In this document: one piece after another, positions 3,568-28,799 of the stretch | Numbering within the stretch: position 1 is the first letter of the stretch | How the letters are laid out: each line of letters starts with the position of its first letter | Origin: Mytilus trossulus | Lineage: Eukaryota | Reading direction: 5' to 3' | Assembly: GCF_036588685.1 (NCBI RefSeq) | Contig: NC_086373.1 | Location: forward strand, 4,774,001 to 4,838,000 | DNA length: 64,000 nucleotides | Program-made: the position numbers and the translations under genes | Notes under the pieces: generated by a model | Databases searched by the model: none | What the model was told of the DNA's origin: nothing | What the model saw: only the letters and a program-made list of their open reading frames with translations

Positions 3568-4188
3568 TTACTTCTTCTTTGGTGTCTTTGCCTTCTTTGG
3601 TTTAGCTGCAGCCTTTGTCTTCTTGGGAGATTTTGTGGCTTTCTTTGCAGATTTGGCAGCAGGTTTTGCAGCAGGTTTCTTTGCAGCTGGCTTCTTTGCT
3701 TTTGGTTTAGCTGCTTTCTTTTCACCTGCTGATTTCTTTTCACCTGCTGGTTTCTTTGCTGCAGGTTTCTTTGCGGCAGTCTTTTTGGTAGGTGTCTTTG
3801 CCTTCTTTGGCTTGGCTGCTTTAGGTTTAACTACTTTCTTTGCTGGTTTCTTAGCTGGTTTAGCTACTTCCCCAATCTTAAAGCTTCCAGAAGCGCCGGT
3901 ACCCTTCGACTGTTTCAAGCTATTGCTCTTCACTCCTGATTTCAGAGCTAACTTCAAGTGAGTGTTGACTGTTTTTGCATCGCTACCAACGCTGAAGTTT
4001 GCTAAGATATACTTGAGGATGGCTTGACGGCTGGAGCCTCCACGCTCTTTCAAAGCAGATATAGCCTTTCCGACCATCTCGCTGTATTTTGGATGAGTAG
4101 CTACTTTCTTTGGTTTAGCTGCAGCTTTCTTCTTTGGTGACTTAGCTGGGGTCTTTACTACTGGTGCTGTTGCTGGTGCGTCAGACAT
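3568..4188 (-). CDS. H1: Histone H1, 206-aa variant (separated from its promoter by a LINE)
   Basis: Protein identical to 1206-1826. Confidence 0.97.
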   Translation of the reverse strand: MSDAPATAPVVKTPAKSPKKKAAAKPKKVATHPKYSEMVGKAISALKERGGSSRQAILKYILANFSVGSDAKTVNTHLKLALKSGVKSNSLKQSKGTGASGSFKIGEVAKPAKKPAKKVVKPKAAKPKKAKTPTKKTAAKKPAAKKPAGEKKSAGEKKAAKPKAKKPAAKKPAAKPAAKSAKKATKSPKKTKAAAKPKKAKTPKKK

Positions 4189-5250
4189 TTTGCGGCTTTG
4201 GTTGTTGAACGATGTGTGCGAATGAACGACAGATTACAATGATATGCAAAATTATTATTATTATTATTATTGATGTTTTGGGAGGCGACTTTCCTGCTGT
4301 GGAACTTGCGCCCTAATTTCACTTATCGTTACTGTTTTTTGAAGAAACTTAGTGTTTCGTGTTTTGTTCACTACACGTGAGTTCTTAAGTTGTGAGTTTT
4401 TTTTTTGTTCTTTTTTTTTTTCTAAGTCTTTAATGTATTGTGGTTTGACTTTTGTAGAATTCTGTAGATTTCTTTTTTAAATATTTATTTTGTCGTTCAA
4501 ACTTTTGTTTCGTTGCATGGCTAATTACTTAGATTGCTTTGATTTGTATGGTAGTAACAGCTAATTAATATACATGAGTGTATAAAATGAATCTGAATGT
4601 CCATCGCTGAAGATAGAGATTAGATAATGCTTCCCGATAGCCCGGTGTCAATTATTTAATGAAAAATTGCCAAATATATGTATGCGCCAGGTAAAAAAAG
4701 ACTGTCGCATACTTATGTCACCTACATTGGGATTAATAAAAGAATTAAAATATATGTTAAATCCCCTAGATACCAATTAAAGAGACCAGTTTGAGTTATG
4801 GTCCCCTTGTTCAGTGAGGATTGTCGTGGTCTGTGTATTGACCCCGACTGCCCTCACTGACCATGAGACCACCGAATAATCAATCTGGTAATTAAATTTT
4901 GAACTGTAACCCACTATTGACACCGTGACTACGGGAACTACTACTACCATACTGTTTGGACCCAGAGATTGGCGTCCTGTGGCCAATGAGGCATAGTGTG
5001 TGCAACTTTGCAGTATAATGTATAATGAAAGATACATGTGCGACCAGCAGTATTATTTTCATTTGTTATGCAGCATTTTAATTTTAAAATCTAAAATAAG
5101 TTTAACAAACATTTTATCCATTAACAAATTTTCTTTTTTTTTTTTGTGGGGACAGATCTCAATGAGTTCTCCCTAATATAGGTAGACCCCAATTATTTTA
5201 TGTAAAAGATAAAATCCATTTCCTGTACAAGTATTATAAAAGTAATACTT

Positions 5251-8200
5251 TTAAAGTATCATTCTATTCGTGCTCTTTACGTATGTATCAATTGGTAAAA
5301 AATTATATCCTGTTAGGATATTTTTTAATTGAAAGTTCTGTATTTGTAACTTTCTTAAACTGTCAAATAAAATAGATCGTTCTGTGTTATATAATTTGCA
5401 GTGTAATAAGAAATGTTCAACTGTTTCTTCAACACGACACTCCTCACACAATTTAGTGTCAGATATGCCTATTTTATAAAGATGTTTGTTCAATGGTATA
5501 TAACCAGTTCTTAATTTAAAAATCAGTCTTTCTTTGTATCTGGACATTTTTGGTATTTTTATGTCAAAATTAATTTTTGGACTTATTTGATACAATGCTC
5601 TATCTTTCTCTTTATCCCATTCTTCTTGCCACATTTTTTTCATTAAATTTTTACACAATGTTTTAAAATCATCTTTGAACAACGGTACAAAGATATAAAT
5701 ATTTTGAAAACTTAATGCCTGTTTAGCATGAAAATCAGCCAACTCATTGCCTTGTATTCCTACATGACTTGGTATCCATTCAAAAATTATATTTGTACCT
5801 GAATGATACAATGATCTTAGTAAAAAATGAATGTCAAGTAAGAATTGATTTCTTATCTTGTTTAAAGGTATTTTCAGTGCTTGAAGCGCTGATAGAGAGT
5901 CTACAAAAATCACAACGTTAAAAGGTAAAAAGTCTTGTAACCATGATATACATAAATAAATTGCTGTCAATTCACACATAAAAATAGAAAGGTGATTGTT
6001 CAGCTTAAATCCCTTATTGATTTTTAACTCTGGAATGACAAAGGCACAACCGGCATTGCTATTTGGATCTTTTGACCCATCAGTGAATATTTTTAAATGG
6101 TGTTTATATTGAGTATCTATCATGATATTGGCTTCACTTTTAATTAAATGTGGTAAATCCTTTTTAGAAATGTAATCTTTTAAATACGTGTTTACTATAG
6201 GTACTGTAAAATGCCATGGGGGGATTGGACTTTCTCTATATATAACTACATTATTTTCTGAAAAATTATTTCCTTTTAGAGTATCTTTTGCAATTAATGT
6301 AAATGGTTTACGTTTAACAGTTTTACTATAAAATTCAAAAGTAGCAGTATCTTGAATTGATTTTTTGGCTGGATGGTTGTTTTCGAAAGTAGAAATATTT
6401 AAAAATGATTTTGTTATTAACGCTTTTCTTCTGATTTCGTAAGGAGGGTCTCCCATTTCCACCTGAAGTGCTTTTAATGAAGCTGACTTCATAGAACCTG
6501 TACATAAACGTAGAGATTGTGTTTGTACCTTATCTAAAATTTTCTTAATAGATGCAGAGGCTGTATTGTAAACCTCACAACCATAGTCAATTTTTGATCT
6601 TATTAAAGCAATATAAATTTTTCTTAGTGTATATAACTTGTTGCTCCCCATTTCGTTCCCGTTAAAAGTTTCATACAGTTTAAAATTTTTGTACATCTTG
6701 TATTAATATACTGAACATGACTATTCCAAGTAAGATATCTATCAAAAATAATTCCAAGAAATTTAACTTCTTTAACAACTTCTAAAATGTGATTTCCTAT
6801 TTTTAATATAATATTATTACAATTTGATTTCCTAGCAAAAATAACTGTGACTGTTTTTGAAGGTGAAAGTAAAAAACCCCAATTTGAGCACCATTTGCTT
6901 ATACTATTCAAGTCTTCTTGAATTTTTTTTTGTAAAAATTTTAATGATGGTCCAGATTTCCAAATTGCCCCATCATCTGCAAATTGTGACATTTCACAAT
7001 TTTTTAAACAGTCTGACATGTCATTAACCATAATATTAAAAAGCGTTGGACTTATACAACTTCCCTGGGGGGTACCATTTTCTAAAACAAAAATATCTGA
7101 AAAAGGGTTGTTTATCTTAACCTGCAATACTCTATCTGAGAGAAAATTATTAACATAAGCAAGCCTTTAAGACCCATTTTTTTCATTTTTTTTAATAAAC
7201 CATGTTTCCATAGCATATCGAAAGCTTTTTGGAAATCAATAAATATTCCAACTTATATGTGTTTTTTAGCAAAAGATTTCTGTATTGCATTTTTTAGACG
7301 TATACATTGCTGTATCGTACTTTTATTTTTTCTATAACCGTTTTGATTCGGGTTAAATATATTATTTTTTTCCAGAAACCACGTTAATCTGTTGTTAACC
7401 ATTTTTCCATTGTCTTATTAAAATTAGAAGTTAATGCAATAGGTCTATATGATAATGGATCACTAAGATCTTTACCATGTTTAAAACTAGGAATAATTGT
7501 TGAATGTTTCCATTCCTTTGGAAGTTCTTGTAACATCCAAATTTTATTAATAAATAGTAAAAATATGCAAGGTTTTATTAGATAAATGGCGAAACATACT
7601 ATAAGTTGTTCTATCCTTTCCCGGCGAGCTATCATTAGGGAGCTACCATTTGATTTTTATGGGGGGGGGGGGAGGGGGCTAGGATGAAAATTTTTGTCCT
7701 GCTTTTTTTTTTTAGTTGTAATCTCTGTCCTGCCTTTTTATTTTTTACTCTATTCGGTCCTGCCTTTTTTTTTACTAGTTTATCCTGACTTTTTTTTTAC
7801 ACAAATTGTCATCCTGCCTTTTTTTTACCAAGTTGCTCATCCTGCCTTTTTTTTTTACTCAAAACTCCTGTCCTGCCTATTTTTTTCAAATTTCATCCTA
7901 GCCCCCCCATAAAAATCAAATGGTAGCTCCCTTAGTATCAGCTATTGCATCTTTAAATTCTTGCAATGTAAATTTTTCATTAAAACAATCTGTATTAATT
8001 TTGTAATATTCAATAAAATCATTTGTCTCTTCTTTTTCTGTTTTAGTCTTTAATTCTTTGAAGTCGTTATTGTAATTTGATGTACTACTGACTTTGCAGT
8101 AATTTTCTGCAAATACGTTTGCTTTTTCTTTCGTATCTGTAATAAATCTATTAAAATATTTCAGAATAGGAATGTTTGTCCTAGTACTTATCTTCCCTAA

Positions 8201-9342
8201 CATCTTTTTTACATTATGCCGTAGATCTGAAATGTTATTATTACAATTGAGACTAGTACAGTAATTTGACCAATGGTTGTCCTGTGTATCTTTTAATACT
8301 TTTTTACAAAATCTTTATCTTTATAAATTTTAAAATCATTGCCATTTCCAGTATGTCTTGCTCTATTTCTAGCTTTGTTTCTAGCTTTTATAGCTGAAGT
8401 ACATTCCTTTGTCCACCAAGGAACACAAGGTTTGTTTGTTTTATGAAATTTCTTAATAGGAATATGGGTACATGCTATATTAATCAATTCAGTGGTTAAT
8501 GTATTGTTAGTTTGCTGTATATCATCTGTAATTAAATTCTCTGTAAATTTAATGTCACATCTCTTAAAATTCCATTTAGGGGAGAAATCACTGTTGTAAT
8601 CACCAATATATATATTAGAATCAATGTACACACAAAAGTGATCACTTCCAAAGGTGGAATGTTGATCTACCAACCAATTAATTTTTTGTCCAATATTAGG
8701 ACTACAAAAAGTCAGATCTAAACATGATGTTTCTAAATTAATCGGATTCAGTCTAGTTCCTGATCCTTCGTTTAAAAGACATATATTATTATCTTGAATA
8801 CACTTAAAAAGTTCTCTACCTTTAGTATCGATTCTTTTCCCCCATAATGTATGGTGAGCATTAAAGTCACCACATAATATGTATTCTGTTGTAATTTGAC
8901 TAAGAAGAGTATCATAGTCTTCATATTTAGTGTCTAATTTAGGGTCATATAAATTAAGTATCAGTAATTTCTTACTATTATGTATAATATAAATTGCAGA
9001 AGTTTCAAATGTACTCTGAAAATCAACTGTACTATAGTTAATATATTGTTTAACATAAATGGCTGTTCCACCTCTGTTAACACCTCGACTTGAGAATGTT
9101 GCGAGTGTGTAACCTGGTATTTCAGGGTAATCTTTTTAGAGATTACAAAAAGTTTCTTGAAAACATAAAATATTTGGCGTATCTTTAATATTGTTTAAGT
9201 GCCATATAAACTCCGGTATGTGTGACCGAATTCCCTGACAGTTCCAATGTGCCAAACTAAGTTGTAAAGCCATGAGTATGATTAAAGTATACATTATAAT
9301 TGACATGAATGTAAATAGTATATATTTCATTATTAAATACAA
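5251..9342 (-). pseudogene. LINE ORF2 (APE-RT-RNase H), broken by frameshifts, deletions and a MITE
   Basis: Fragments match the 1277-aa ORF at 23606-27439 (YRPIALTS, NGTPQGS, FADD, FTDGSK, WIPSHVGIQGNE). Confidence 0.93.
7638..7931. mobile_element. MITE, 294 bp, PIF/Harbinger (Tourist)-like
   Basis: TIR GGGAGCTACCATTTGATTTTTATGGGG / CCCCATAAAAATCAAATGGTAGCTCCC; TTA TSD at 7635-7637 and 7932-7934; empty site (atcattagtatc) in LINE copies 2 and 3. Confidence 0.93.
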
Positions 9343-9356
9343 GTATAAATAAAAAC

Positions 9357-10616
9357 TTAGTTTATTAATGTAAGTTTATCTAGTATATATTCTTGGTTAA
9401 CGTGTACACCAAGCAATTCTAATACCATGTCAGCTACAACACTGACTTTTTGTTCATTATCAGATAATGTTGGAACCTGTATTGCTGTCATAATTATTAA
9501 GAGAATAAAATTGTCAAACTCTGTGAGCTGTTGAAATAAGCCCTTTGTTAGAGAAATCTTTTCATGCTCTTTAGGAAGTTTTTCCTTTTTACCCTGTAAA
9601 GGATTTTGTTTTGACTCTTTAAGAACATGTGTTCTTGCTTCTTTAACTGAGCATTTTTCTTTACACACTCTTTTTATTATTTTTTCATTTTGTATTTTCT
9701 TTGGGCAATCTTTACTCGTAGCTGGGTGGTCACCGTTGCAATTTGCACATTTAGCCTTAACTTTACACTCCCTATCTTTATGGTCTTCCCCACACCTTAC
9801 ACATTTTACACTATTTCTACATTCTCTTTGCATATGTCCAAAACCCTGACATTTAAAACATTGAGTTGGTTTTGGAACAAAGAGTTTTGTTTTGTGACTC
9901 TTAAAACCTATCAACACTCTGGGTGGTAACTCTGTTGTGTTAAAAAACAGTTTTAGAGTTTTTGACGGAACCCTAGTTTTAGTATTAATGTCATAATATG
10001 TTAGTCTCTGAAATCGACTGACCTGTTGTTTCTCTAGAATGTCCTGTAAATCTGATTCTTCTATATCAAGTGAAACATTGTAAATACAACCTATAGTAGT
10101 GTTCAGCGATTTAGGCTGAAACACATTTACTGACCATTGTCCTAGATGTGTAAGTTTGGACAATTGATTGAACTGGTGTTTATCAAAACAAACAACCATT
10201 AAATGACCAGTTCTTGTTGCCCCGAGCTCTTTTACAATACCTACAGAAGAACTCATTAGTTTTTGTATTTGTATTGGATTTTTTAATCCAAGTTTTTCGT
10301 CTCTATTAGAAACTATTAACACATATTTTTTAGGCTGTTTTGGACTATTAATTAGTCTTTTAACGGGGGCCCTTTTTACAGTATCCTGTAACACACTACT
10401 ATAAGAGTCGTGTTGTTGACTGTTAACACGTTTCCTTTTACTTTTTTGATATTGCCATGGGTCTTGGCCAATATCTGATTCACTCTCTAATTCTGATGTT
10501 TCTGAACCTGTATCCATATCAATTAAATTTTGGGACATATAAGTTCTGTCCATAACTTTTTCATGGAGACCATCAATAAATCGTTCTATCACAGTAATGT
10601 CTTCTGAATCAGACAT
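9357..10616 (-). CDS. LINE ORF1, gag-like nucleic-acid-binding protein (intact, 419 aa)
   Basis: Three CCHC knuckles: CFKCQGFGHMQREC, CVRCGEDHKDREC, CANCNGDHPATSKDC. Confidence 0.92.
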   Translation of the reverse strand: MSDSEDITVIERFIDGLHEKVMDRTYMSQNLIDMDTGSETSELESESDIGQDPWQYQKSKRKRVNSQQHDSYSSVLQDTVKRAPVKRLINSPKQPKKYVLIVSNRDEKLGLKNPIQIQKLMSSSVGIVKELGATRTGHLMVVCFDKHQFNQLSKLTHLGQWSVNVFQPKSLNTTIGCIYNVSLDIEESDLQDILEKQQVSRFQRLTYYDINTKTRVPSKTLKLFFNTTELPPRVLIGFKSHKTKLFVPKPTQCFKCQGFGHMQRECRNSVKCVRCGEDHKDRECKVKAKCANCNGDHPATSKDCPKKIQNEKIIKRVCKEKCSVKEARTHVLKESKQNPLQGKKEKLPKEHEKISLTKGLFQQLTEFDNFILLIIMTAIQVPTLSDNEQKVSVVADMVLELLGVHVNQEYILDKLTLIN

Positions 10617-10894
10617 ACTTAAATTACCAAACTACTACTCCCTATTGGAGAAGAAGCGTGACTAAATATATATAAACAAAAAAAAAAATAGTAGAAAATT
10701 TTCTGAACCTAAGTTTACACAACCTGCATATAAATATCTTAATGTAATATCTAAATAAATAGCTGAAATATCTGAAATATCAATGCCTGTACATTAAGTA
10801 AGAAACTAAGTTTACATATAAATAACAATCAGTGCTCAGTAACTAAATGCATGTGTGTGACACCATTGGACTCACTACCAATGATATGCAAAAA

Positions 10895-11193
10895 TTATTA
10901 TTATTATTATTGATGTTTTGGGAGGCGACTTTCCTGCTATGGAACTTGCGCCCTAATTTCACTTATCGTTACTGTTTTTGAAGAATAAAAAAAAAACTTA
11001 GTGTTTCGTGTTTTGTTCACTACACGTGAGTTCTTAAGTTGTGAGTTTTTTCTTTTTTGTTCTTTTTTTTTTTTCCAAGTCTTTAATGTATTGTGGTTTT
11101 ACTTTTGTAAAATTCTGTAGATTTTTAAAATATTTATTTTGTCGTTCAAACTTTTGTTTCGTTGCATGGCTAATTACATAGATTGCTTTGATT
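10895..11193 (-). mobile_element. 5'-truncated (~300 bp) copy of the same LINE, in tandem at the same target
   Basis: (TAA)n tail plus 3'-UTR; followed by its own shorter target copy TGATATGCAAAAA at 11194-11206. Confidence 0.93.
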
Positions 11194-12180
11194 TGATATG
11201 CAAAAATCACTGACAGTGTGTAATTATCAAACTAACGCGGACCTCGACGAGAGCACCCTTAAACTTTCATGACAATCTAATTCAAACAGATCGACAAGAA
11301 AATCTGTGTGCTTGTTCGACAAGTTTTAATCATTTGTTTCAAATAAATTGTACTTTTTGTTATATAAATGATACACGAAAATTTTCAGCAGGAATTTATC
11401 TTTCAGAATATGTCATAAGAATTAAACAAGATACCACGAGTGAAGAAATATTTACGATTAATGTACAACTTGTCAATTTCACTCGTGCGATTCTTCATCA
11501 GAAAACGTGTTGTATTATTTCACAAAAACTAGATTGTGCCGTAAAAATGATATAAATTTGTAGTAAAATCATTTCTTTATATGTTTTTGCTTTCAGATAT
11601 ACACAGAAATAAAGAGACTTCCCAGAAATTTAGATTTTGCCTTCGATATGAAAGCACACAAAGATGGCAAACTTCGAAACCGGGACTTCCTTGACCGAGA
11701 TGAAAGACGTTTCAAATATTCGAAGTTTTTACTGGAACTTTACAAACTATAATTATTATTTATTGTTTATTATTTGTTTTTGCTATAATGAATTTTTGCT
11801 AATTAGAATCCTTTTAGAAAAAAATGTGAATCATATAAGCCCTGGTCAAAAAGAAAGAGGCGATTTCAAATGACGACAAATGGCGGATACCATATGATCA
11901 CAGACGACCTTTCAAAGACCTAATTTAAAAAAAATATATATAGTCACATGCATGTGGAAGGAGTGGAATTCTCAAGTGTATATAACTTGACGTGCATGTA
12001 TTTCACTTAAAAATATTTCAACATGCAGATGGGTATTGAAAACTAAATAAATTTATGAATGATTTATTTTCTGTTTTCTTCATTGATAGCTAAATACATT
12101 GAATATTACATCCAAATAAATTAGTAAACAAAATATTGAACCATTATGTTTGGTAGGAATACAAAATTATACGTAAAAAA

Positions 12181-13493: not shown

Positions 13494-14555
13494 TTTGCGG
13501 CTTTGGTTGTTGAACGATGTGTGCGAATGAACGACAGATTACAATGATATGCAAAAATTATTATTATTATTATTATTGATGTTTTGGGAGGCGACTTTCC
13601 TGCTATGGAACTTGCGCCCTAATTTCACTTATCGTTACTGTTTTTTGAAGAAACTTAGTGTTTCGTGTTTTGTTCACTACACGTGAGTTCTTAAGTTGTG
13701 AGGTTTTTTTTGTTCTTTTTTTTTCTAAGTCTTTAATGTATTGTGGTTTGACTTTTGTAGAATTCTGTAGATTTCTTTTTTAAATATTTATTTTGTCGTT
13801 CAAACTTTTGTTTCGTTGCATGGCTAATTACTTAGATTGCTTTGATTTGTATGGTAGTAGCAGCTAATTAATATACATGAGTGTATAAAATGAATCTGAA
13901 TGTCCATCGCTGAAGATAGAGATTAGATAATGCTTCCCGATAGCCCGGTGTCAATTATTTAATGAAAAATTGCCAAATATATGTATGCGCCAGGTAAAAA
14001 AAGACTGTCGCATACTTATGTCACCTACATTGGGATTAATAAAAGAATTAAAATATATGTTAAATCCCCTAGATACCAATTAAAGAGACCAGTTTGAGTT
14101 ATGGTCCCCTTGTTCAGTGAGGATTGTCGTGGTCTGTGTATTGACCCCGACTGCCCTCACTGACCATGAGACCACCGAATAATCAATCTGGTAATTAAAT
14201 TTTGAACTGTAACCCACTATTGACACCGTGACTACGGGAACTACTACTACCATACTGTTTGGACCCAGAGATTGGCGTCCTGTGGCCAATGAGGCATAGT
14301 GTGTGCAACTTTGCAGTATAATGTATAATGAAAGATACATGTGCGACCAGCAGTATTATTTTCATTTGTTATGCAGCATTTTAATTTTAAAATCTAAAAT
14401 AAGTTTAACAAACATTTTATCCATTATCAAATTTTCTTTTTTTTTTTTTTGTGGGGACAGATCTCAATGAGTTCTTCCTAATATAGGTAGACCCCAATTA
14501 TTTTATGTAAAAGATAAAATCCATTTCCTGTACAAGTATTATAAAAGTAATACTT

Positions 14556-17500
14556 TTAAAGTATCATTCTATTCGTGCTCTTTACGTATGTATCAATTGG
14601 TAAAAAATTATATCCTGTTAGGATATTTTTTAATTGAAAGTTCTGTATTTGTAACTTTCTTAAACTGTCAAATAAAATAGATCGTTCTGTGTTATATAAT
14701 TTGCAGTGTAATAAGAAATGTTCAACTGTTTCTTCAACACGACACTCCTCACACAATTTAGTGTCAGATATGCCTATTTTATAAAGATGTTTGTTCAATG
14801 GTATATAACCAGTTCTTAATTTAAAAATCAGTCTTTCTTTGTATCTGGACATTTTTGGTATTTTTATGTCAAAATTAATTTTTGGACTTATTTGATACAA
14901 TGCTCTATCTTTCTCTTTATCCCATTCTTCTTGCCACATTTTTTTCATTAAATTTTTACACAATGTTTTAAAATCATCTTTGAACAACGGTACAAAGATA
15001 TAAATATTTTGAAAACTTAATGCCTGTTTAGCATGAAAATCAGCCAACTCATTGCCTTGTATTCCTACATGACTTGGTATCCATTCAAAAATTATATTTG
15101 TACCTGAATGATACAATGATCTTAGTAAAAAATGAATGTCAAGTAAGAATTGATTTCTTATCTTGTTTAAAGGTATTTTCAGTGCTTGAAGCGCTGATAG
15201 AGAGTCTACAAAAATCACAACGTTAAAAGGTAAAAAGTCTTGTAACCATGATATACATAAATAAATTGCTGTCAATTCACACATAAAAATAGAAAGGTGA
15301 TTGTTCAGCTTAAATCCCTTATTGATTTTTAACTCTGGAATGACAAAGGCACAACCGGCATTGCTATTTGGATCTTTTGACCCGTCAGTGAATATTTTTA
15401 AATGGTGTTTATATTGAGTATCTATCATGATATTGGCTTCACTTTTAATTAAATGTGGTAAATCCTTTTTAGAAATGTAATCTTTTAAATACGTGTTTAC
15501 TATAGGTACTGTAAAATGCCATGGGGGGATTGGACTTTCTCTATATATAACTACATTATTTTCTGAAAAATTATTTCCTTTTAGAGTATCTTTTGCAATT
15601 AATGTAAATGGTTTACGTTTAACAGTTTTACTATAAAATTCAAAAGTAGCAGTATCTTGAATTGATTTTTTGGCTGGATGGTTGTTTTCGAAAGTAGAAA
15701 TATTTAAAAATGATTTTGTTATTAACGCTTTTCTTCTGATTTCGTAAGGAGGGTCTCCCATTTCCACCTGAAGTGTTTTTAATGAAGCTGACTTCATAGA
15801 ACCTGTACATAAACGTAGAGATTGTGTTTGTACCTTATCTAAAATTTTCTTAATAGATGCAGAGGCTGTATTGTAAACCTCACAATCATAGTCAATTTTT
15901 GATCTTATTAAAGCAATATAAATTTTTCTTAGTGTATAACTTGTTGCTCCCCATTTCGTTCCCGTTAAAAGTTTCATACAGTTTAAAATTTTTGTACATC
16001 TTGTATTAATATACTGAACATGACTATTCCAAGTAAGATATCTATCAAAAATAATTCCAAGAAATTTAACTTCTTTAACAACTTCTAAAATGTGATTTCC
16101 TATTTTTAATATAATATTATTACAATTTGATTTCCTAGCAAAAATAACTGTGACTGTTTTTGAAGGTGAAAGTAAAAAAACCCAATTTGAGCACCATTTG
16201 CTTATACTATTCAAGTCTTCTTGAATTTTTTTTTGTAAAAATTTTAATGATGGTCCAGATTTCCAAATTGCCCCATCATCTGCAAATTGTGACATTTCAC
16301 AATTTTTTAAACAGTCTGACATGTCATTAACCATAATATTAAAAAGCGTTGGACTTATACAACTTCCCTGGGGGGTACCATTTTCTAAAACAAAAATATC
16401 TGAAAAAGTGTTGTTTATCTTAACTTGCAATACTCTATCTGAGAGAAAATTATTAACATAAGCAAGCATGTTGCCTTTAAGACCCATTTTTTTCATTTTT
16501 TTTAATAAACCATGTTTCCATAACATATCGAAAGCTTTTTGAAAATCAATAAATATTCCAACTAATATGTGTTTTTTAGCAAAAGATTTCTGTATTGCAT
16601 TTTCTAGACGTATACATTGCTGTATCGTACTTTTATTTTTTCTATAACCGTTTTGATTCGGGTTAAATATATTATTTTTTTCCAGAAACCATGTTAATCT
16701 GTTGTTAACCATTTTTTCCATTATCTTATTAAAATTAGAAGTTAATGCAATAGGTCTATATGATAATGGATCACTGGGATCTTTACCATGTTTAAAACTA
16801 GGAATAATTGTTGAATGTTTCCATTCCTTTGGAAGTTCTTGTAACATCCAAATTTTATTAATAAATAGTAAAAATATGCTTAAGGTTTTATTAGATAAAT
16901 GGCGAAACATACTATAAGTTGTTCTATCTTTTCCCGGCGAGCTATCATTAGTATCAGCTATTGCATCTTTGAATTCTTGCAATGTAAATTTTTCATTAAA
17001 ACAATCTGTATTAATTTTGTAATATTCAATAAAATCATTTATCTCTTCTTTTTCTGTTTTAGTCTTAAATTCTTTGAAGTCGTTATTGTAATTTGATGTA
17101 CTACTGACTTTGCAGTAATTTTCTGCAAATACGTTTGCTTTTTCTTTCGTATCTGTAATAAATCTATTAAAATATTTCAGAATAGGAATGTTTGTCCTAG
17201 AACTTATCTTCCCTAACATCTTTTTAACATTATGCCATAGATCTGAAATGTTATTATTACAATTGAGACTAGTACAGTAATTTGACCAATGGTTGTCCTG
17301 TGTATCTTTTAATACTTTTTTACAAAATCTTTCTTTATCTTTATAAATTTTAAAATCATTGCCACTTCCAGTATGTCTTGCTCTATTTCTAGCTTTGTTT
17401 CTAGCTTTTATAGCTGAAGTACATTCCTTTGTCCACCAAGGAACACAAGGTTTGTTTGTTTTATGAAATTTCTTAATAGGAATATGGGTACATGCTATAT

Positions 17501-18389
17501 TAATCAATTCAGTGGTTAATGTATTGTTAGTTTGCTGTATATCATCTGTAATTAAATTCTCTGTAAATTTAATGTCACATTCTTTCGTGAAGCTTTTCCA
17601 ATTTGCTCTCTTAAAATTCCATTTAGGGGAGAAATCACTGTTGTAATCACCAATATATATATTAGAATCAATGTACACACAAAAATGATCACTTCCAAAG
17701 GTGGAATGTTGATCTACCAACCAATTAATTTTTTGTCCAATATTAGGACTACAAAAAGTCAGATCTAAACATGATGTTTCTAAATTAATCGGATTCAGTC
17801 TTGTTCCTGATCCTTCGTTTAAAAGACATATATTATTATCTTGAATACACTTAAAAAGTTCTCTACCTTTAGTATCGATTCTTTTCCCCCACAATGTATG
17901 GTGAGCATTAAAGTCACCACATAATATGTATTCTGTTGTAATTTGACTAAGAAGAGTATCATAGTCTTCATATTTAGTGTCTAATTTAGGGTCATATAAA
18001 TTAAGTATCAATAATTTCTTACTATTATGTATAATATAAATTGCAGAAGTTTCAAATGTACTCTGAAAATCAACTGTACTATAGTTAATATATTGTTTAA
18101 CATAAATGGCTGTTCCACCTCTGTTAACACCTCGACTTTAGAATGTTGCGAGTGTGTAACCTGGTATTTCAGGGTAATCTTTTTCGAGATTACAAAAAGT
18201 TTCTTGAAAACATAAAATATTTGGCGTATCTTTAATATTGTTTAAGTGCCATATAAACTCCGGTATGTGTGACCGAATTCCCTGACAGTTCCAATGTGCC
18301 AAACTAAGTTGTAAAGCCATGAGTATGATTAAAGTATACATTATAATTGACATGAATGTAAATAGTATATATTTCATTATTAAATACAA
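14556..18389 (-). pseudogene. LINE ORF2 with a premature TAA at 18138-18140 in the endonuclease domain
   Basis: 83-aa and 1151-aa ORFs are collinear with the intact ORF2 of copy 3. Confidence 0.9.
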
Positions 18390-18403
18390 GTATAAATAAA
18401 AAC

Positions 18404-19663
18404 TTAGTTTATTAATGTAAGTTTATCTAGTATATATTCTTGGTTAACGTGTACACCAAGCAATTCTAATACCATGTCAGCTACAACACTGACTTTTTGT
18501 TCATTATCAGATAATGTTGGAACCTGTATTGCTGTCATAATTATTAAGAGAATAAAATTGTCAAACTCTGTGAGCTGTTGAAATAAGCCCTTTGTTAGAG
18601 AAATCTTTTCATGCTCTTTAGGAAGTTTTTCCTTTTTACCCTGTAAAGGATTTTGTTTTGACTCTTTAAGAACATGTGTTCTTGCTTCTTTAACTGAGCA
18701 TTTTTCTTTACACACTCTTTTTATTATTTTTTCATTTTGTATTTTCTTTGGGCAATCTTTACTCGTAGCTGGGTGGTCACCGTTGCAATTTGCACATTTA
18801 GCCTTAACTTTACACTCCCTATCTTTATGGTCTTCCCCACACCTTACACATTTTACACTATTTCTACATTCTCTTTGCATATGTCCAAAACCCTGACATT
18901 TAAAACATTGAGTTGGTTTTGGAACAAAGAGTTTTGTTTTGTGACTCTTAAAACCTATCAACACTCTGGGTGGTAACTCTGTTGTGTTAAAAAACAGTTT
19001 TAGAGTTTTTGACGGAACCCTAGTTTTAGTATTAATGTCATAATATGTTAGTCTCTGAAATCGACTGACCTGTTGTTTCTCTAGAATGTCCTGTAAATCT
19101 GATTCTTCTATATCAAGTGAAACATTGTAAATACAACCTATAGTAGTGTTCAGCGATTTAGGCTGAAACACATTTACTGACCATTGTCCTAGATGTGTAA
19201 GTTTGGACAATTGATTGAACTGGTGTTTATCAAAACAAACAACCATTCAATGACCAGTTCTTGTTGCCCCGAGCTCTTTTACAATACCTACAGAAGAACT
19301 CATTAGTTTTTGTATTTGTATTGGATTTTTTAATCCAAGTTTTTCGTCTCTATTAGAAACTATTAACACATATTTTTTAGGCTGTTTTGGACTATTAATT
19401 AGTCTTTTAACGGGGGCCCTTTTTACAGTATCCTGTAACACACTACTATAAGAGTCGTGTTGTTGACTGTTAACACGTTTCCTTTTACTTTTTTGATATT
19501 GCCATGGGTCTTGGCCAATATCTGATTCACTCTCTAATTCTGATGTTTCTGAACCTGTATCCATATCAATTAAATTTTGGGACATATAAGTTCTGTCCAT
19601 AACTTTTTCATGGAGACCATCAATAAATCGTTCTATCACAGTAATGTCTTCTGAATCAGACAT
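18404..19663 (-). pseudogene. LINE ORF1 with an internal TGA at 19247-19249
   Basis: 138-aa and 280-aa in-frame pieces match the 419-aa ORF1 of copy 1. Confidence 0.9.
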
Positions 19664-19942
19664 ACTTAAATTACCAAACTACTACTCCCTATTGGAGAAG
19701 AAGCGTGACTAAATATATATAAACAAAAAAAAAAAATAGTAGAAAATTTTCTGAACCTAAGTTTACACAACCTGCATATAAATATCTTAATGTAATATCT
19801 AAATAAATAGCTGAAATATCTGAAATATCAATGCCTGTACATTAAGTAAGAAACTAAGTTTACATATAAATAACAATCAGTGCTCAGTAACTAAATGCAT
19901 GTGTGTGACACCATTGGACTCACTACCAATGATATGCAAAAA

Positions 19943-20242
19943 TTATTATTATTATTATTGATGTTTTGGGAGGCGACTTTCCTGCTATGGAACTTGCGCC
20001 CTAATTTCACTTATCGTTACTGTTTTTGAAGAATAAAAAAAAAACTTAGTGTTTCGTGTTTTGTTCACTACACGTGAGTTCTTAAGTTGTGAGTTTTTTC
20101 TTTTTTGTTCTTTTTTTTTTTTTCCAAGTCTTTAATGTATTGTGGTTTTACTTTTGTAAAATTCTGTAGATTTTTAAAATATTTATTTTGTCGTTCAAAC
20201 TTTTGTTTCGTTGCATGGCTAATTACATAGATTGCTTTGATT
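19943..20242 (-). mobile_element. 5'-truncated (~300 bp) LINE copy, duplicate of 10895-11193
   Basis: Same truncation point and diagnostic variants; target copy at 20243-20255. Confidence 0.93.
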
Positions 20243-21229
20243 TGATATGCAAAAATCACTGACAGTGTGTAATTATCAAACTAACGCGGACCTCGACGAG
20301 AGCACCCTTAAACTTTCATGACAATCTAATTCAAACAGATCGACAAGAAAATCTGTGTGCTTGTTCGACAAGTTTTAATCATTTGTTTCAAATAAATTGT
20401 ACTTTTTGTTATATAAATGATACACGAAAATTTTCAGCAGGAATTTATCTTTCAGAATATGTCATAAGAATTAAACAAGATACCACGAGTGAAGAAATAT
20501 TTACGATTAATGTACAACTTGTCAATTTCACTCGTGCGATTCTTCATCAGAAAACGTGTTGTATTATTTCACAAAAACTAGATTGTGCCGTAAAAATGAT
20601 ATAAATTTGTAGTAAAATCATTTCTTTATATGTTTTTGCTTTCAGATATACACAGAAATAAAGAGACTTCCCAGAAATTTAGATTTTGCCTTCGATATGA
20701 AAGCACACAAAGATGGCAAACTTCGAAACCGGGACTTCCTTGACCGAGATGAAAGACGTTTCAAATATTCGAAGTTTTTACTGGAACTTTACAAACTATA
20801 ATTATTATTTATTGTTTATTATTTGTTTTTGCTATAATGAATTTTTGCTAATTAGAATCCTTTTAGAAAAAAATGTGAATCATATAAGCCCTGGTCAAAA
20901 AGAAAGAGGCGATTTCAAATGACGACAAATGGCGGATACCATATGATCACAGACGACCTTTCAAAGACCTAATTTAAAAAAAATATATATAGTCACATGC
21001 ATGTGGAAGGAGTGGAATTCTCAAGTGTATATAACTTGACGTGCATGTATTTCACTTAAAAACATTTCAACATGCAGATGGGTATTGAAAACTAAATAAA
21101 TTTATGAATGATTTATTTTCTGTTTTCTTCATTGATAGCTAAATACATTGAATATTACATCCAAATAAATTAGTAAACAAAATATTGAACCATTATGTTT
21201 GGTAGGAATACAAAATTATACGTAAAAAA

Positions 21230-21946: not shown

Positions 21947-22543
21947 TTACTTCTTCTTTGGTGTCTTTGCCTTCTTTGGTTTAGCTGCAGCCTTTGTCTT
22001 CTTGGGAGATTTTGTGGCTTTCTTTGCAGATTTGGCAGCAGGTTTTGCAGCAGGTTTCTTTGCAGCTGGCTTCTTTGCTTTTGGTTTAGCTGCTTTCTTT
22101 TCACCTGCTGGTTTCTTTGCTGCAGGTTTCTTTGCGGCAGTCTTTTTGGTAGGTGTCTTTGCCTTCTTTGGCTTGGCTGCTTTAGGTTTAACTACTTTCT
22201 TTGCTGGTTTCTTAGCTGGTTTAGCTACTTCCCCAATCTTAAAGCTTCCAGAAGCGCCGGTACCCTTCGACTGTTTCAAGCTCTTGCTCTTCACTCCTGA
22301 TTTCAGAGCTAACTTCAAGTGAGTGTTGACTGTTTTTGCATCGCTACCAACGCTGAAGTTTGCTAAGATATACTTGAGGATGGCTTGACGGCTGGAGCCT
22401 CCACGCTCTTTCAAAGCAGATATAGCCTTTCCGACCATCTCGCTGTATTTTGGATGAGTAGCTACTTTCTTTGGTTTAGCTGCAGCTTTCTTCTTTGGTG
22501 ACTTAGCTGGGGTCTTTACTACTGGTGCTGGTGCGTCAGACAT
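21947..22543 (-). CDS. H1: Histone H1, 198 aa (KSKSL allele; separated from promoter by a LINE)
   Basis: Protein identical to 12897-13493. Confidence 0.97.
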   Translation of the reverse strand: MSDAPAPVVKTPAKSPKKKAAAKPKKVATHPKYSEMVGKAISALKERGGSSRQAILKYILANFSVGSDAKTVNTHLKLALKSGVKSKSLKQSKGTGASGSFKIGEVAKPAKKPAKKVVKPKAAKPKKAKTPTKKTAAKKPAAKKPAGEKKAAKPKAKKPAAKKPAAKPAAKSAKKATKSPKKTKAAAKPKKAKTPKKK

Positions 22544-23605
22544 TTTGCGGCTTTGGTTGTTGAACGATGTGTGCGAATGAACGACAGATTACAATGATAT
22601 GCAAAAATTATTATTATTATTATTATTGATGTTTTGGGAGGCGACTTTCCTGCTATGGAACTTGCGCCCTAATTTCACTTATCGTTACTGTTTTTTGAAG
22701 AAACTTAGTGTTTCGTGTTTTGTTCACTACACGTGAGTTCTTAAGTTGTGAGGTTTTTTTTGTTCTTTTTTTTTCTAAGTCTTTAATGTATTGTGGTTTG
22801 ACTTTTGTAGAATTCTGTAGATTTCTTTTTTAAATATTTATTTTGTCGTTCAAACTTTTGTTTCGTTGCATGGCTAATTACTTAGATTGCTTTGATTTGT
22901 ATGGTAGTAGCAGCTAATTAATATACATGAGTGTATAAAATGAATCTGAATGTCCATCGCTGAAGATAGAGATTAGATAATGCTTCCCGATAGCCCGGTG
23001 TCAATTATTTAATGAAAAATTGCCAAATATATGTATGCGCCAGGTAAAAAAAGACTGTCGCATACTTATGTCACCTACATTGGGATTAATAAAAGAATTA
23101 AAATATATGTTAAATCCCCTAGATACCAATTAAAGAGACCAGTTTGAGTTATGGTCCCCTTGTTCAGTGAGGATTGTCGTGGTCTGTGTATTGACCCCGA
23201 CTGCCCTCACTGACCATGAGACCACCGAATAATCAATCTGGTAATTAAATTTTGAACTGTAACCCACTATTGACACCGTGACTACGGGAACTACTACTAC
23301 CATACTGTTTGGACCCAGAGATTGGCGTCCTGTGGCCAATGAGGCATAGTGTGTGCAACTTTGCAGTATAATGTATAATGAAAGATACATGTGCGACCAG
23401 CAGTATTATTTTCATTTGTTATGCAGCATTTTAATTTTAAAATCTAAAATAAGTTTAACAAACATTTTATCCATTATCAAATTTTCTTTTTTTTTTTTTT
23501 GTGGGGACAGATCTCAATGAGTTCTTCCTAATATAGGTAGACCCCAATTATTTTATGTAAAAGATAAAATCCATTTCCTGTACAAGTATTATAAAAGTAA
23601 TACTT

Positions 23606-26600
23606 TTAAAGTATCATTCTATTCGTGCTCTTTACGTATGTATCAATTGGTAAAAAATTATATCCTGTTAGGATATTTTTTAATTGAAAGTTCTGTATTT
23701 GTAACTTTCTTAAACTGTCAAATAAAATAGATCGTTCTGTGTTATATAATTTGCAGTGTAATAAGAAATGTTCAACTGTTTCTTCAACACGACACTCCTC
23801 ACACAATTTAGTGTCAGATATGCCTATTTTATAAAGATGTTTGTTCAATGGTATATAACCAGTTCTTAATTTAAAAATCAGTCTTTCTTTGTATCTGGAC
23901 ATTTTTGGTATTTTTATGTCAAAATTAATTTTTGGACTTATTTGATACAATGCTCTATCTTTCTCTTTATCCCATTCTTCTTGCCACATTTTTTTCATTA
24001 AATTTTTACACAATGTTTTAAAATCATCTTTGAACAACGGTACAAAGATATAAATATTTTGAAAACTTAATGCCTGTTTAGCATGAAAATCAGCCAACTC
24101 ATTGCCTTGTATTCCTACATGACTTGGTATCCATTCAAAAATTATATTTGTACCTGAATGATACAATGATCTTAGTAAAAAATGAATGTCAAGTAAGAAT
24201 TGATTTCTTATCTTGTTTAAAGGTATTTTCAGTGCTTGAAGCGCTGATAGAGAGTCTACAAAAATCACAACGTTAAAAGGTAAAAAGTCTTGTAACCATG
24301 ATATACATAAATAAATTGCTGTCAATTCACACATAAAAATAGAAAGGTGATTGTTCAACTTAAATCCCTTATTGATTTTTAACTCTGGAATGACAAAGGC
24401 ACAACCGGCATTGCTATTTGGATCTTTTGACCCGTCAGTGAATATTTTTAAATGGTGTTTATATTGAGTATCTATCATGATATTGGCTTCACTTTTAATT
24501 AAATGTGGTAAATCCTTTTTAGAAATGTAATCTTTTAAATACGTGTTTACTATAGGTACTGTAAAATGCCATGGGGGGATTGGACTTTCTCTATATATAA
24601 CTACATTATTTTCTGAAAAATTATTTCCTTTTAGAGTATCTTTTGCAATTAATGTAAATGGTTTACGTTTAACAGTTTTACTATAAAATTCAAAAGTAGC
24701 AGTATCTTGAATTGATTTTTTGGCTGGATGGTTGTTTTCGAAAGTAGAAATATTTAAAAATGATTTTGTTATTAACGCTTTTCTTCTGATTTCGTAAGGA
24801 GGGTCTCCCATTTCCACCTGAAGTGCTTTTAATGAAGCTGACTTCATAGAACCTGTACATAAACGTAGAGATTGTGTTTGTACCTTATCTAAAATTTTCT
24901 TAATAGATGCAGAGGCTGTATTGTAAACCTCACAACCATAGTCAATTTTTGATCTTATTAAAGCAATATAAATTTTTCTTAGTGTATAACTTGTTGCTCC
25001 CCATTTCGTTCCCGTTAAAAGTTTCATACAGTTTAAAATTTGTGTACATCTTGTATTAATATACTGAACATGACTATTCCAAGTAAGATATCTATCAAAA
25101 ATAATTCCAAGAAATTTAACTTCTTTAACAACTTCTAAAATGTGATTTCCTATTTTTAATATAATATTATTACAATTTGATTTCCTAGCAAAAATAACTG
25201 TGACTGTTTTTGAAGGTGAAAGTAAAAAACCCCAATTTGAGCCCCATTTGCTTATACTATTCAAGTCTTCTTGAATTTTTTTTTGTAAAAATTTTAATGA
25301 TGGTCCAGATTTCCAAATTGCCCCATCATCTGCAAATTGTGACATTTCACAATTTTTTAAACAGTCTGACATGTCATTAACCATAATATTAAAAAGCGTT
25401 GGACTTATACAACTTCCCTGGGGGGTACCATTTTCTAAAACAAAAATATCTGAAAAAGTGTTGTTTATCTTAACCTGCAATACTCTATCTGAGAGAAAAT
25501 TATTAACATAAGCAAGCATGTTGCCTTTAAGACCCATTTTTTTCATTTTTTTTAATAAACCATGTTTCCATAACATATCGAAAGCTTTTTGAAAATCAAT
25601 AAATATTCCAACTAATATGTGTTTTTTAGCAAAAGATTTCTGTATTGCATTTTCTAGACGTATACATTGCTGTATCGTACTTTTATTTTTTCTATAACCG
25701 TTTTGATTCGGGTTAAATATATCATTTTTTTCCAGAAACCATGTTAATCTGTTGTTAACCATTTTTTCCATTATCTTATTAAAATTAGAAGTTAATGCAA
25801 TAGGTCTATATGATAATGGATCACTGGGATCTTTACCATGTTTAAAACTAGGAATAATTGTTGAATGTTTCCATTCCTTTGGAAGTTCTTGTAACATCCA
25901 AATTTTATTAATAAATAGTAAAAATATGCTTAAGGTTTTATTAGATAAATGGCGAAACATACTATAAGTTGTTTTATCTTTTCCCGGCGAGCTATCATTA
26001 GTATCAGCTATTGCATCTTTGAATTCTTGCAATGTAAATTTTTCATTAAAACAATCTGTATTAATTTTGTAATATTCAATAAAATCATTTATCTCTTCTT
26101 TTTCTGTTTTAGTCTTAAATTCTTTGAAGTCGTTATTGTAATTTGATGTACTACTGACTTTGCAGTAATTTTCTGCAAATACGTTTGCTTTTTCTTTCGT
26201 ATCTGTAATAAATCTATTAAAATATTTCAGAATAGGAATGTTTGTCCTAGAACTTATCTTCCCTAACATCTTTTTAACATTATGCCATAGATCTGAAATG
26301 TTATTATTACAATTGAGACTAGTACAGTAATTTGACCAATGGTTGTCCTGTGTATCTTTTAATACTTTTTTACAAAATCTTTCTTTATCTTTATAAATTT
26401 TAAAATCATTGCCACTTCCAGTATGTCTTGCTCTATTTCTAGCTTTGTTTCTAGCTTTTATAGCTGAAGTACATTCCTTTGTCCACCAAGGAACACAAGG
26501 TTTGTTTGTTTTATGAAATTTCTTAATAGGAATATGGGTACATGCTATATTAATCAATTCAGTGGTTAATGTATTGTTAGTTTGCTGTATATCATCTGTA

Positions 26601-27439
26601 ATTAAATTCTCTGTAAATTTAATGTCACATTCTTTCGTGAAGCTTTTCCAATTTGCTCTCTTAAAATTCCATTTAGGGGAGAAATCACTGTTGTAATCAC
26701 CAATATATATATTAGAATCAATGTACACACAAAAATGATCACTTCCAAAGGTGGAATGTTGATCTACCAACCAATTAATTTTTTGTCCAATATTAGGACT
26801 ACAAAAAGTCAGATCTAAACATGATGTTTCTAAATTAATCGGATTCAGTCTTGTTCCTGATCCTTCGTTTAAAAGACATATATTATTATCTTGAATACAC
26901 TTAAAAAGTTCTCTACCTTTAGTATCGATTCTTTTCCCCCACAATGTATGGTGAGCATTAAAGTCACCACATAATATGTATTCTGTTGTAATTTGACTAA
27001 GAAGAGTATCATAGTCTTCATATTTAGTGTCTAATTTAGGGTCATATAAATTAAGTATCAGTAATTTCTTACTATTATGTATAATATAAATTGCAGAAGT
27101 TTCAAATGTACTCTGAAAATCAACTGTACTATAGTTAATATATTGTTTAACATAAATGGCTGTTCCACCTCTGTTAACACCTCGACTTGAGAATGTTGCG
27201 AGTGTGTAACCTGGTATTTCAGGGTAATCTTTTTCGAGATTACAAAAAGTTTCTTGAAAACATAAAATATTTGGCGTATCTTTAATATTGTTTAAGTGCC
27301 ATATAAACTCCGGTATGTGTGACCGAATTCCCTGACAGTTCCAATGTGCCAAACTAAGTTGTAAAGCCATGAGTATGATTAAAGTATACATTATAATTGA
27401 CATGAATGTAAATAGTATATATTTCATTATTAAATACAA
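23606..27439 (-). CDS. LINE ORF2: APE endonuclease, reverse transcriptase, RNase H, C-terminal CCHC (ATG of MALQL at 27370 is a likely start)
   Basis: HWNCQG, FQET, GDFNAHH, LDLTF, SDH; YRPIALTS, DFQKAFD, PQGS, FADD, FLG; FTDGSK, DSLSAL, WIPSH; CEEC...ETVEHFLLHC. Confidence 0.97.
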   Translation of the reverse strand: MYLIMKYILFTFMSIIMYTLIILMALQLSLAHWNCQGIRSHIPEFIWHLNNIKDTPNILCFQETFCNLEKDYPEIPGYTLATFSSRGVNRGGTAIYVKQYINYSTVDFQSTFETSAIYIIHNSKKLLILNLYDPKLDTKYEDYDTLLSQITTEYILCGDFNAHHTLWGKRIDTKGRELFKCIQDNNICLLNEGSGTRLNPINLETSCLDLTFCSPNIGQKINWLVDQHSTFGSDHFCVYIDSNIYIGDYNSDFSPKWNFKRANWKSFTKECDIKFTENLITDDIQQTNNTLTTELINIACTHIPIKKFHKTNKPCVPWWTKECTSAIKARNKARNRARHTGSGNDFKIYKDKERFCKKVLKDTQDNHWSNYCTSLNCNNNISDLWHNVKKMLGKISSRTNIPILKYFNRFITDTKEKANVFAENYCKVSSTSNYNNDFKEFKTKTEKEEINDFIEYYKINTDCFNEKFTLQEFKDAIADTNDSSPGKDKTTYSMFRHLSNKTLSIFLLFINKIWMLQELPKEWKHSTIIPSFKHGKDPSDPLSYRPIALTSNFNKIMEKMVNNRLTWFLEKNDIFNPNQNGYRKNKSTIQQCIRLENAIQKSFAKKHILVGIFIDFQKAFDMLWKHGLLKKMKKMGLKGNMLAYVNNFLSDRVLQVKINNTFSDIFVLENGTPQGSCISPTLFNIMVNDMSDCLKNCEMSQFADDGAIWKSGPSLKFLQKKIQEDLNSISKWGSNWGFLLSPSKTVTVIFARKSNCNNIILKIGNHILEVVKEVKFLGIIFDRYLTWNSHVQYINTRCTQILNCMKLLTGTKWGATSYTLRKIYIALIRSKIDYGCEVYNTASASIKKILDKVQTQSLRLCTGSMKSASLKALQVEMGDPPYEIRRKALITKSFLNISTFENNHPAKKSIQDTATFEFYSKTVKRKPFTLIAKDTLKGNNFSENNVVIYRESPIPPWHFTVPIVNTYLKDYISKKDLPHLIKSEANIMIDTQYKHHLKIFTDGSKDPNSNAGCAFVIPELKINKGFKLNNHLSIFMCELTAIYLCISWLQDFLPFNVVIFVDSLSALQALKIPLNKIRNQFLLDIHFLLRSLYHSGTNIIFEWIPSHVGIQGNELADFHAKQALSFQNIYIFVPLFKDDFKTLCKNLMKKMWQEEWDKEKDRALYQISPKINFDIKIPKMSRYKERLIFKLRTGYIPLNKHLYKIGISDTKLCEECRVEETVEHFLLHCKLYNTERSILFDSLRKLQIQNFQLKNILTGYNFLPIDTYVKSTNRMIL

Positions 27440-27452
27440 GTATAAATAAAAC

Positions 27453-28711
27453 TTAGTTTATTAATGTAAGTTTATCTAGTATATATTCTTGGTTAACGTG
27501 TACACCAAGCAATTCTAATACCATGTCAGCTACAACACTGACTTTTTGTTCATTATCAGATAATGTTGGAACCTGTATTGCTGTCATAATTATTAAGAGA
27601 ATAAAATTGTCAAACTCTGTGAGCTGTTGAAATAAGCCCTTTGTTAGAGAAATCTTTTCATGCTCTTTAGGAAGGTTTTCCTTTTTACCCTGTAAAGGAT
27701 TTTGTTTTGACTCTTTAAGAACATGTGTTCTTGCTTCTTTAACTGAGCATTTTTCTTTACACACTCTTTTTATTATTTTTTCATTTTGTATTTTCTTTGG
27801 GCAATCTTTACTCGTAGCTGGGTGGTCACCGTTGCAATTTGCACATTTAGCCTTAACTTTACACTCCCTATCTTTATGGTCTTCCCCACACCTTACACAT
27901 TTTACACTATTTCTACATTCTCTTTGCATATGTCCAAAACCCTGACATTTAAAACATTGAGTTGGTTTTGGAACAAAGAGTTTTGTTTTGTGACTCTTAA
28001 AACCTATCAACACTCTGGGTGGTAACTCTGTTGTGTTAAAAACAGTTTTAGAGTTTTTGACGGAACCCTAGTTTTAGTATTAATGTCATAATATGTTAGT
28101 CTCTGAAATCGACTGACCTGTTGTTTCTCTAGAATGTCCTGTAAATCTGATTCTTCTATATCAAGTGAAACATTGTAAATACAACCTATAGTAGTGTTCA
28201 GCGATTTAGGCTGAAACACATTTACTGACCATTGTCCTAGATGTGTAAGTTTGGACAATTGATTGAACTGGTGTTTATCAAAACAAACAACCATTAAATG
28301 ACCAGTTCTTGTTGCCCCGAGCTCTTTTACAATACCTACAGAAGAACTCATTAGTTTTTGTATTTGTATTGGATTTTTTAATCCAAGTTTTTCGTCTCTA
28401 TTAGAAACTATTAACACATATTTTTTAGGCTGTTTTGGACTATTAATTAGTCTTTTAACGGGGGCCCTTTTTACAGTATCCTGTAACACACTACTATAAG
28501 AGTCGTGTTGTTGACTGTTAACACGTTTCCTTTTACTTTTTTGATATTGCCATGGGTCTTGGCCAATATCTGATTCACTCTCTAATTCTGATGTTTCTGA
28601 ACCTGTACCCATATTAATTAAATTTTGGGACATATAAGTTCTGTCCATAACTTTTTCATGGAGACCATCAATAAATCGTTCTATCACAGTAATGTCTTCT
28701 GAATCAGACAT
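27453..28711 (-). pseudogene. LINE ORF1 with a 1-nt frameshift in an A-run (28038-28042)
   Basis: A5 here versus A6 in copies 1 and 2; could be a homopolymer sequencing error. Confidence 0.8.
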
Positions 28712-28765
28712 ACTTAAATTACCAAACTACTACTCCCTATTGGAGAAGAAGCGTGACTAAATATA

Positions 28766-28799
<34 letters not shown>

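Follow-up and report, generated by a model that had tools for sequence, protein, structure and literature searches.

Stacked copies of a Nimb-like LINE at one nick of a Mytilus trossulus histone H1 promoter: a probable second insertion and a possible case of target specificity

In the mussel Mytilus trossulus, a 299-nt piece of a LINE 3′ end (tail plus body) lies directly upstream of a full-length LINE, head-to-tail, in the promoter of a histone H1 gene, raising the questions of how this stack arose and whether its site is targeted by the element. The analyzed stretch of 64,000 nt (the window) is a tandem array whose 2.34-kb unit carries a single histone H1 gene along with two 5S rRNA genes, every one of them on the minus strand; four Mytilus species are described as having interspersed H1 and 5S genes (PMC4106214; this and the other papers are cited from excerpts of their text and supplements). 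Twelve of the 15 H1 promoter sites in the window are empty, and three are filled by copies of one LINE family (L1, L2, and L3; Table 1), each oriented in the sense of H1, with L1 separating the nearest H1 gene from its upstream promoter. The 11-mer core of the target occurs 20 times in the window (i.e., in the 12 empty sites and at eight junctions), always on a single strand and at a single position of the H1-5S unit, while the H1 start codon lies 64 nt downstream of the LINE nick. The left part of the array (1–31400) carries LINE insertions among diverged unit types (A, with a 206-aa H1, and B), and the right part (36400–64000) is almost fully homogenised (type C); unit U28991 passes from B type to C type after ca. 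900 nt.

The original prediction described the locus as target, full LINE, target, 3′ fragment of ca. 300 bp, and shorter target, with a TG microhomology at the truncation point and three named differences between the fragment and the full-length 3′ ends. All five parts were recovered in this order, and the three differences are real. The leading TG of the 13-nt target copy also continues the element, i.e., a 2-nt microhomology that extends to six matches when one target base is allowed to bulge, and this 13-mer would occur at a given junction by chance with a probability of ca. 8e-8. Moreover, all five 3′ junctions (three without the duplicates) stop at the same target base, within 1 nt. The B-type flank beyond the fragment is common to the L1, L2, and L3 units.

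Table 1. Positions of the LINE copies, the fragment, and the surrounding target and H1 features in the window.
Feature	Position	Strand	Basis or remark
Histone H1 gene, 206-aa type (type A unit)	3568..4188	-	ORF; Pfam Linker_histone; unit types
L1 target copy on the H1 side	4237..4251		4 A, matching the empty type-A site at 1878
L1, full-length Nimb-like LINE	4252..10878	-	ORFs, copy comparison
16-nt target copy CAATGATATGCAAAAA between L1 5′ end and fragment tail	10879..10894		junction same as in fragment-free L3 (28988-29003)
Fragment 3′ tail (AAT)n, plus strand (TTA)n	10895..10911	-	sequence
Fragment body, 282 nt, 5′-truncated, 3′ UTR only, divergent allele	10912..11193	-	sequence comparison
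13-nt promoter-side target copy TGATATGCAAAAA	11194..11206		first 2 nt = microhomology with element
Upstream H1 promoter, B-type flank	11207..11270	-	promoter role inferred from position
L2, full-length copy	13558..19926	-	both ORFs broken; 3′ part like L3, 5′ part like L1
Duplicate of target-fragment-target	19927..20255	-	carried by 9-kb duplication
L3, full-length copy without fragment	22608..28987	-	ORF2 intact, ORF1 frameshifted
L3 upstream target copy, intact 16 nt	28988..29003		presumed pre-fragment state (role inferred)

The second target-fragment-target arrangement differs from the first by no substitution and one indel. It lies inside a duplication of 9,050 nt (99.8% identity, 15 mismatches, and three gaps), so that the fragment counts as one event and not two. 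An assembly artefact as the source of the duplicates was rejected, as they differ by 15 substitutions.

That the long copies are full length is supported by the consensus of M.edulis_254, a sister family, which begins with the same 22 nt as 10853–10874. L1 has an intact ORF1 (9357–10616, 419 aa) with zinc knuckles (CCHC-type motifs at 253 and 272) and without a Pfam match, as well as a broken ORF2, whereas ORF2 of L3 (23606–27427, 1273 aa) encodes an AP endonuclease (about aa 20–240), a reverse transcriptase (RT), an RNase H, and a CCHC motif (Pfam PF14529/PF03372, PF00078, and PF00075). No copy with both ORFs intact was found among L1, L2, and L3. Inside ORF2 of L1 sits a 294-nt MITE (7638–7931) with terminal inverted repeats and a TTA duplication, which we take to be Harbinger-like by this target site duplication (TSD). 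The poly-A run in the 5′ UTR of the element (28770–28797 in L3 and 10673–10690 in L1) varies in length between copies.

Judging RT likeness by eye, the element appears to be a Nimb-like LINE of the I group. It combines an ORF2 carrying AP endonuclease, RT, and RNase H with a separate ORF1 whose zinc knuckles mark the I group and Nimb clade. It likewise has the 10–15 nt TSDs, and the truncated copies joined by microhomology or extra bases, of that group; specifically, the TSD is 13 nt plus the 2-nt microhomology for the fragment and 15–16 nt for the full copies. Membership of the R1 clade, whose targets are rDNA, telomeres, or microsatellites, was rejected, with the H1 promoter as target and Nimb elements as the nearest classified RTs, so that the likeness to R1 drawn originally reduces to the stacking. 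Membership of the Tx1 clade was rejected as well, given the RNase H and the I/Nimb nearest neighbors; Tx1 elements have an L1-group RT and no RNase H, and may include families in core histone genes. The best named match of the LINE protein was from M. galloprovincialis (56%), and close sister families are 51–64% identical to it. Among the 13 rows with one motif in the RT alignment of PMC10294476 (supplement 23), none of which is the LINE family itself, the five mytilid rows most alike by eye were all tree-classified as I/Nimb by the authors of that paper (classes taken from rows 1–58 of 83 in supplement 19, where these families have 5–19 members). These relatives (i.e., B.platifrons_21 and M.edulis_151/252/254/322; PMC10294476) and Nimb-2_DR (PMC4245944) share with the element the ORF1/ORF2 layout, RNase H, and RT motifs (about 70% by eye), and M.edulis_254 has the identical 22-nt 5′ end.

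A PDB search with the element returned generic L1, TRAS1, R2, and RNase H matches only, and its 3′-end pattern had no match in metagenome contigs. Related loci were found for 5 of 593 candidates in metagenomes (half of the collection scanned), 56 of 257 in prokaryote genomes, and 0 of 187 in viral contigs; these 61 metagenome and prokaryote loci are at most 37% identical and gave no H1 match by tblastn, which is uninformative on the LINE family itself.

The fragment differs from each of L1, L2, and L3 by six substitutions and five indels over 265–268 aligned nt (90–91% identity), whereas over the same stretch L2 equals L3, and L1 differs from L2 by two substitutions and two indels. At the 0.45% divergence between fragment-bearing and fragment-free units, ca. 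1.3 substitutions are predicted instead of six (P=0.002); at 0.9%, the 3′ divergence of L1 and L3, P=0.043. Contigs from four of 24 listed public sequencing runs (X1, X3, X6, and X9) were aligned to L3. The fragment's A at 22882 was the only letter in X3, X6, and X9, in contigs extending beyond the truncation, and X3 (one contig) and X6 (two contigs) also had the 4-nt deletion seen in the fragment at 22822, indicating that fragment alleles circulate. The X9 contig carried one of the five covered diagnostic fragment characters, and the X1 contig, equal to L3, carried none. Both the divergence from the neighbors and these two characters support the separate donor that had been proposed for the fragment, but a whole donor with all fragment alleles was not found in the contigs of the four runs among the variants listed (410 further substitution and 41 further indel rows exist beyond these).

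We consider it likely that the fragment is a second insertion, from a different donor, at the same nick, into the TSD upstream of an older full-length copy. As in a double-insertion tandem dimer, a target copy is present inside the junction, and the partners are of distinct origin. Reading the steps from the junctions, an AP-type endonuclease would nick the strand opposite the H1 message after an A run, 64 nt upstream of the ATG, after which the RNA tail would pair with one to three primer bases and reverse transcription would begin. Synthesis of the fragment would stop after ca. 300 nt, the second strand would be joined 13 nt away through the microhomology, and later unequal exchange in the array would copy the 9-kb unit and yield the second fragment. 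In the simplest history, one full-length insertion was followed by a duplication, by entry of the fragment into the upstream target of one duplicate, and by a second duplication.

Of the head-to-tail re-insertion originally proposed, the second insertion at the same nick is supported, while its order, full-length copy first, is suggested by L3. The 5′ junction of L3 is identical to those of L1 and L2, with the fragment absent, and its flank shows four differences in 800 nt to the fragment-bearing units, against 8–10 to other unit types. The fragment insertion itself is known from one event. Either order would yield an identical final sequence, and in the reverse one the truncated copy would have come first, with the full-length element entering its downstream target copy, which does retain all downstream target sequence. 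However, this order demands that L3 inserted independently once more into a B-type unit and formed an identical 5′ junction, whereas all three B-type flanks in the window adjoin the LINE and have diagnostic letters in common, with the copies' 5′ parts showing only six substitutions in 1,693 nt. R1, moreover, was not found inserted without a 5′ TSD in the excerpt of PMC2718515, and we regard the reverse order, which would likewise imply two insertions at one nick, as unlikely.

A recombinational origin is very unlikely. An exchange within the 16-nt target would have made the tandem, and a microhomology deletion or gene conversion would have shortened the upstream copy; all copies might then trace back to a single old insertion. 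Recombination does occur in the array (L1 and L2 are mosaic, and a 9-kb unit is duplicated), but a crossover within 16 nt would be required together with a deletion ending by chance at most 3 nt from the target end, and a single passive insertion fits poorly with intact ORFs and the excess of synonymous changes between the copies (among the ORF2 differences listed between runs and window, 6 of 10 are likewise synonymous).

Template jumping, in which the RT would have left the full RNA 5′ end and continued on a second RNA with read-through target bases, would explain the head-to-tail order, and transcripts of R1 are presumed to include target sequence from downstream (PMC2718515). Nevertheless, the 16-nt target separating fragment and full copy stops at the exact base of the L3 junction, which formed without a fragment and therefore argues against a jump, making this origin highly improbable. 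Local duplication of the neighbor's 3′ end followed by drift is hardly credible and largely refuted, despite the 90–91% identity, by the number of differences in a stretch where the neighbors have so few, by the occurrence of two of these in other runs, and by the 6.3 kb that separate the fragment, with its own target copies, from the 3′ end to be copied. Both of these last origins had been named beforehand as the ones that would speak against re-insertion, and both proved unlikely in view of the L3 junction and the fragment differences.

The full-length copies themselves also bear on how often the nick was used. In the 3′ 4,565 nt, L1, L2, and L3 have 30, 6, and 5 private letters, respectively, against 0, 1, and 5 in the 5′ 1,693 nt (poly-A run excluded), and this split between the two parts indicates that L1 and L2 are mosaics. 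Between L1 and L2/L3, 11 of 22 ORF2 changes are synonymous (0.25 expected, p=0.009); the L2-only (2/6) and L3-only (1/5) synonymous changes look neutral. At three L1-specific ORF2 positions, one letter is the majority form in some runs and the other letter in others. Furthermore, four A stand at the L1 junction, as in the type-A site, a match that is drawn from a single empty type-A site and could reflect homopolymer slip. Together, these data suggest that the 3′ part of L1 derives from a separate donor and was inserted into a type-A unit at this nick, with gene conversion by a dispersed copy as an alternative source of the synonymous excess. This excess argues for three independent insertions, and the nick was probably used three times, i.e., by the L1 3′ part, the L2/L3 lineage, and the fragment (two certain-looking insertions at one base and one probable). 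The stack is evidence of targeting, as the original prediction held, although not clearly the strongest in the window, the comparison of L1 with L2/L3 being of similar weight.

Probable threefold use of one nick points to recognition of the H1 promoter site. Insertion at the same nick and strand within one unit has a chance probability of 6e-4 per event, and AAAAT/ATTTT sites number 33 in the unit and 99 in the L1 body. Most likely, recognition would be by the endonuclease, reading upstream sequence together with the 16 nt kept by the duplication. With the specificity case built on two to three events in one window, strict family-wide targeting of this nick has, on the sequence data at hand, an even chance of being correct.

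A real contender, if somewhat short of even, is that, in place of targeting by a sequence-specific endonuclease, an otherwise dispersed family has a hot spot here, created by an open promoter, by the AT richness of the nick, or by tethering to a protein bound at the promoter. Jockey forms dimers without a known strict target (PMC5932611), another LINE inserted 61 nt away, seven X3 and 12 X6 contigs share only the last 43 nt of the element and then differ from each other, and, as a weak point, the M.edulis_254 consensus starts 4 nt inside the element 5′ end and has no H1 flank. On the other hand, all junctions use one of the 33 AAAAT/ATTTT sites of the unit, and the other three mobile elements of the window use other positions.

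The neighboring LINE (31409–36403) is an unrelated second full-length element that entered this promoter in the same orientation, at a distance of 61 nt from the nick used by the Nimb-like copies, with a 1101-aa RT ORF without an RNase H match, a 288-aa ORF1, a (GATA)n tail, and a target duplication of 0–1 nt. A 2.9-kb element (51294–54198) has long terminal inverted repeats beginning with CACAGTG, a 5-nt target duplication (ATTAC), and no ORF of at least 90 aa; its CACAGTG ends recall, presumably, Transib/RAG-like transposons.

The last 43 nt of the fragment fold into a predicted hairpin (z –1.6 over 91 nt of the fragment, and –2.9 on the matching 63-nt stretch of L3). In L3, this predicted hairpin occupies 22628–22670, the last 43 nt before the tail, and is the part shared by the seven X3 and 12 X6 contigs that diverge beyond it. 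A 3′ signal shared among sister families or SINEs is its likely role; no SINE with a fragment-type tail was found in supplement 26 of PMC10294476 or in eight files of PMC11481361, library sequences being covered over up to 400 letters.

In the four public runs, 54 of 114, 90 of 230, 110 of 265, and 28 of 77 contigs were less than 95% alike to L3, and diverged copies of the LINE family may thus lie elsewhere; together with the contigs sharing only the terminal 43 nt, this indicates that sister families or dispersed copies exist. The empty H1 site was present in all four runs, and H1 flank depth far exceeded element depth in each, depth not being equal to copy number. Among the 13 joints listed from contigs of the four runs, none was the fragment junction, the tandem junction, or a truncation of another length joined to the H1 promoter (24 of 300 loose ends and 32 of 755 pieces listed; tail region omitted, rare forms dropped from contigs, and three X9 joints left out). 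All four runs also contain another H1 promoter type, which keeps the stretch corresponding to 11234–11263. It matches only 29031–29060 and 22394–22456 and differs across the target region, making it a natural control for target specificity.

Tandem stacking had been called typical of sequence-specific LINEs such as R1. This is in part borne out: R1 tandems in Drosophila 28S rDNA arise when a copy enters the 5′ TSD (Stage and Eickbush 2009, PMC2718515), and the H1 stack resembles them in the placement of the new copy in the TSD at the resident 5′ end, the fixed first nick, the TSD length (14 nt in R1 vs. 13–16 nt here), the microhomology at truncated 5′ ends, and the later unequal exchange in a gene array. 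Unlike R1, however, the present RT is not of the R1 clade by its nearest neighbors, and the target is a Pol II histone promoter instead of rDNA. Jockey, too, forms dimers (PMC5932611). Transposable element dimers by double insertion are found in many families and population-wide, and insertion preference suffices for them (McGurk and Barbash 2018, PMC5932611). Such dimers likewise keep the TSD in the tandem junction, have a 5′-truncated partner, and are substrates for unequal exchange, but the H1 stack is one isolated instance, at a site that additional copies have used. Tandems also occur in Utopia and Dada (PMC4640811, PMC3706591).

Among Nimb elements, zebrafish Nimb-2 makes TSDs of 12–13 nt, and microhomology or extra bases occur at the joints of 95% of its truncated copies (PMC4245944); the H1-promoter LINE resembles the engineered Nimb-2_DR insertions of that study in TSD length and in the way its 5′ ends are joined. 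The Tx1 specialists Mutsu (5S rDNA) and Keno (U2) are likewise APE-type LINEs in tandem gene arrays (PMC5340908, PMC4494074). In contrast to them, the H1-promoter LINE has an RNase H and belongs to a different clade, and, unlike Mutsu, it leaves the unit's 5S genes untouched and inserts upstream of H1. A family is counted as target-specific when >20% of its genomic flanks are the target (PMC4494074).

With stacking published for R1 and dimers for jockey, the stack itself is ordinary. Known targets of specific elements comprise rRNA, tRNA, snRNA, and spliced-leader genes, microsatellites, telomeres, and transposons, and most specific families belong to early-branched, Tx1, and R1 groups (PMC4640811, PMC5035012). 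The word "histone" has no occurrence in the excerpts of these two reviews, and the excerpts of the Nimb literature (PMC4245944, PMC10294476) state no target specificity. A histone-targeting or target-specific Nimb element was likewise absent from the literature excerpts examined, a set with Repbase Reports and most subscription papers outside its scope. Targeting of the H1 promoter would thus be new if the LINE family proves to aim at histone genes genome-wide.

Whether a Nimb-clade LINE has come to integrate sequence-specifically into the core promoter of histone H1 genes in mussels is, in our view, evenly balanced. If it has, strict targeting by elements with an AP endonuclease would have arisen once more, in addition to R1 and Tx1, and the list of targeting clades and that of target classes would each grow by one. 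Which side of the target is read can be told from the half-site that the duplication leaves, and the close, possibly non-specific sister families (51–64% identity) make a change in endonuclease specificity directly testable. The upstream H1 promoter, just ahead of the sense-oriented element, may drive the element's own transcription, and an array of protein-coding Pol II genes would, if the targeting is true, be a safe haven for it.
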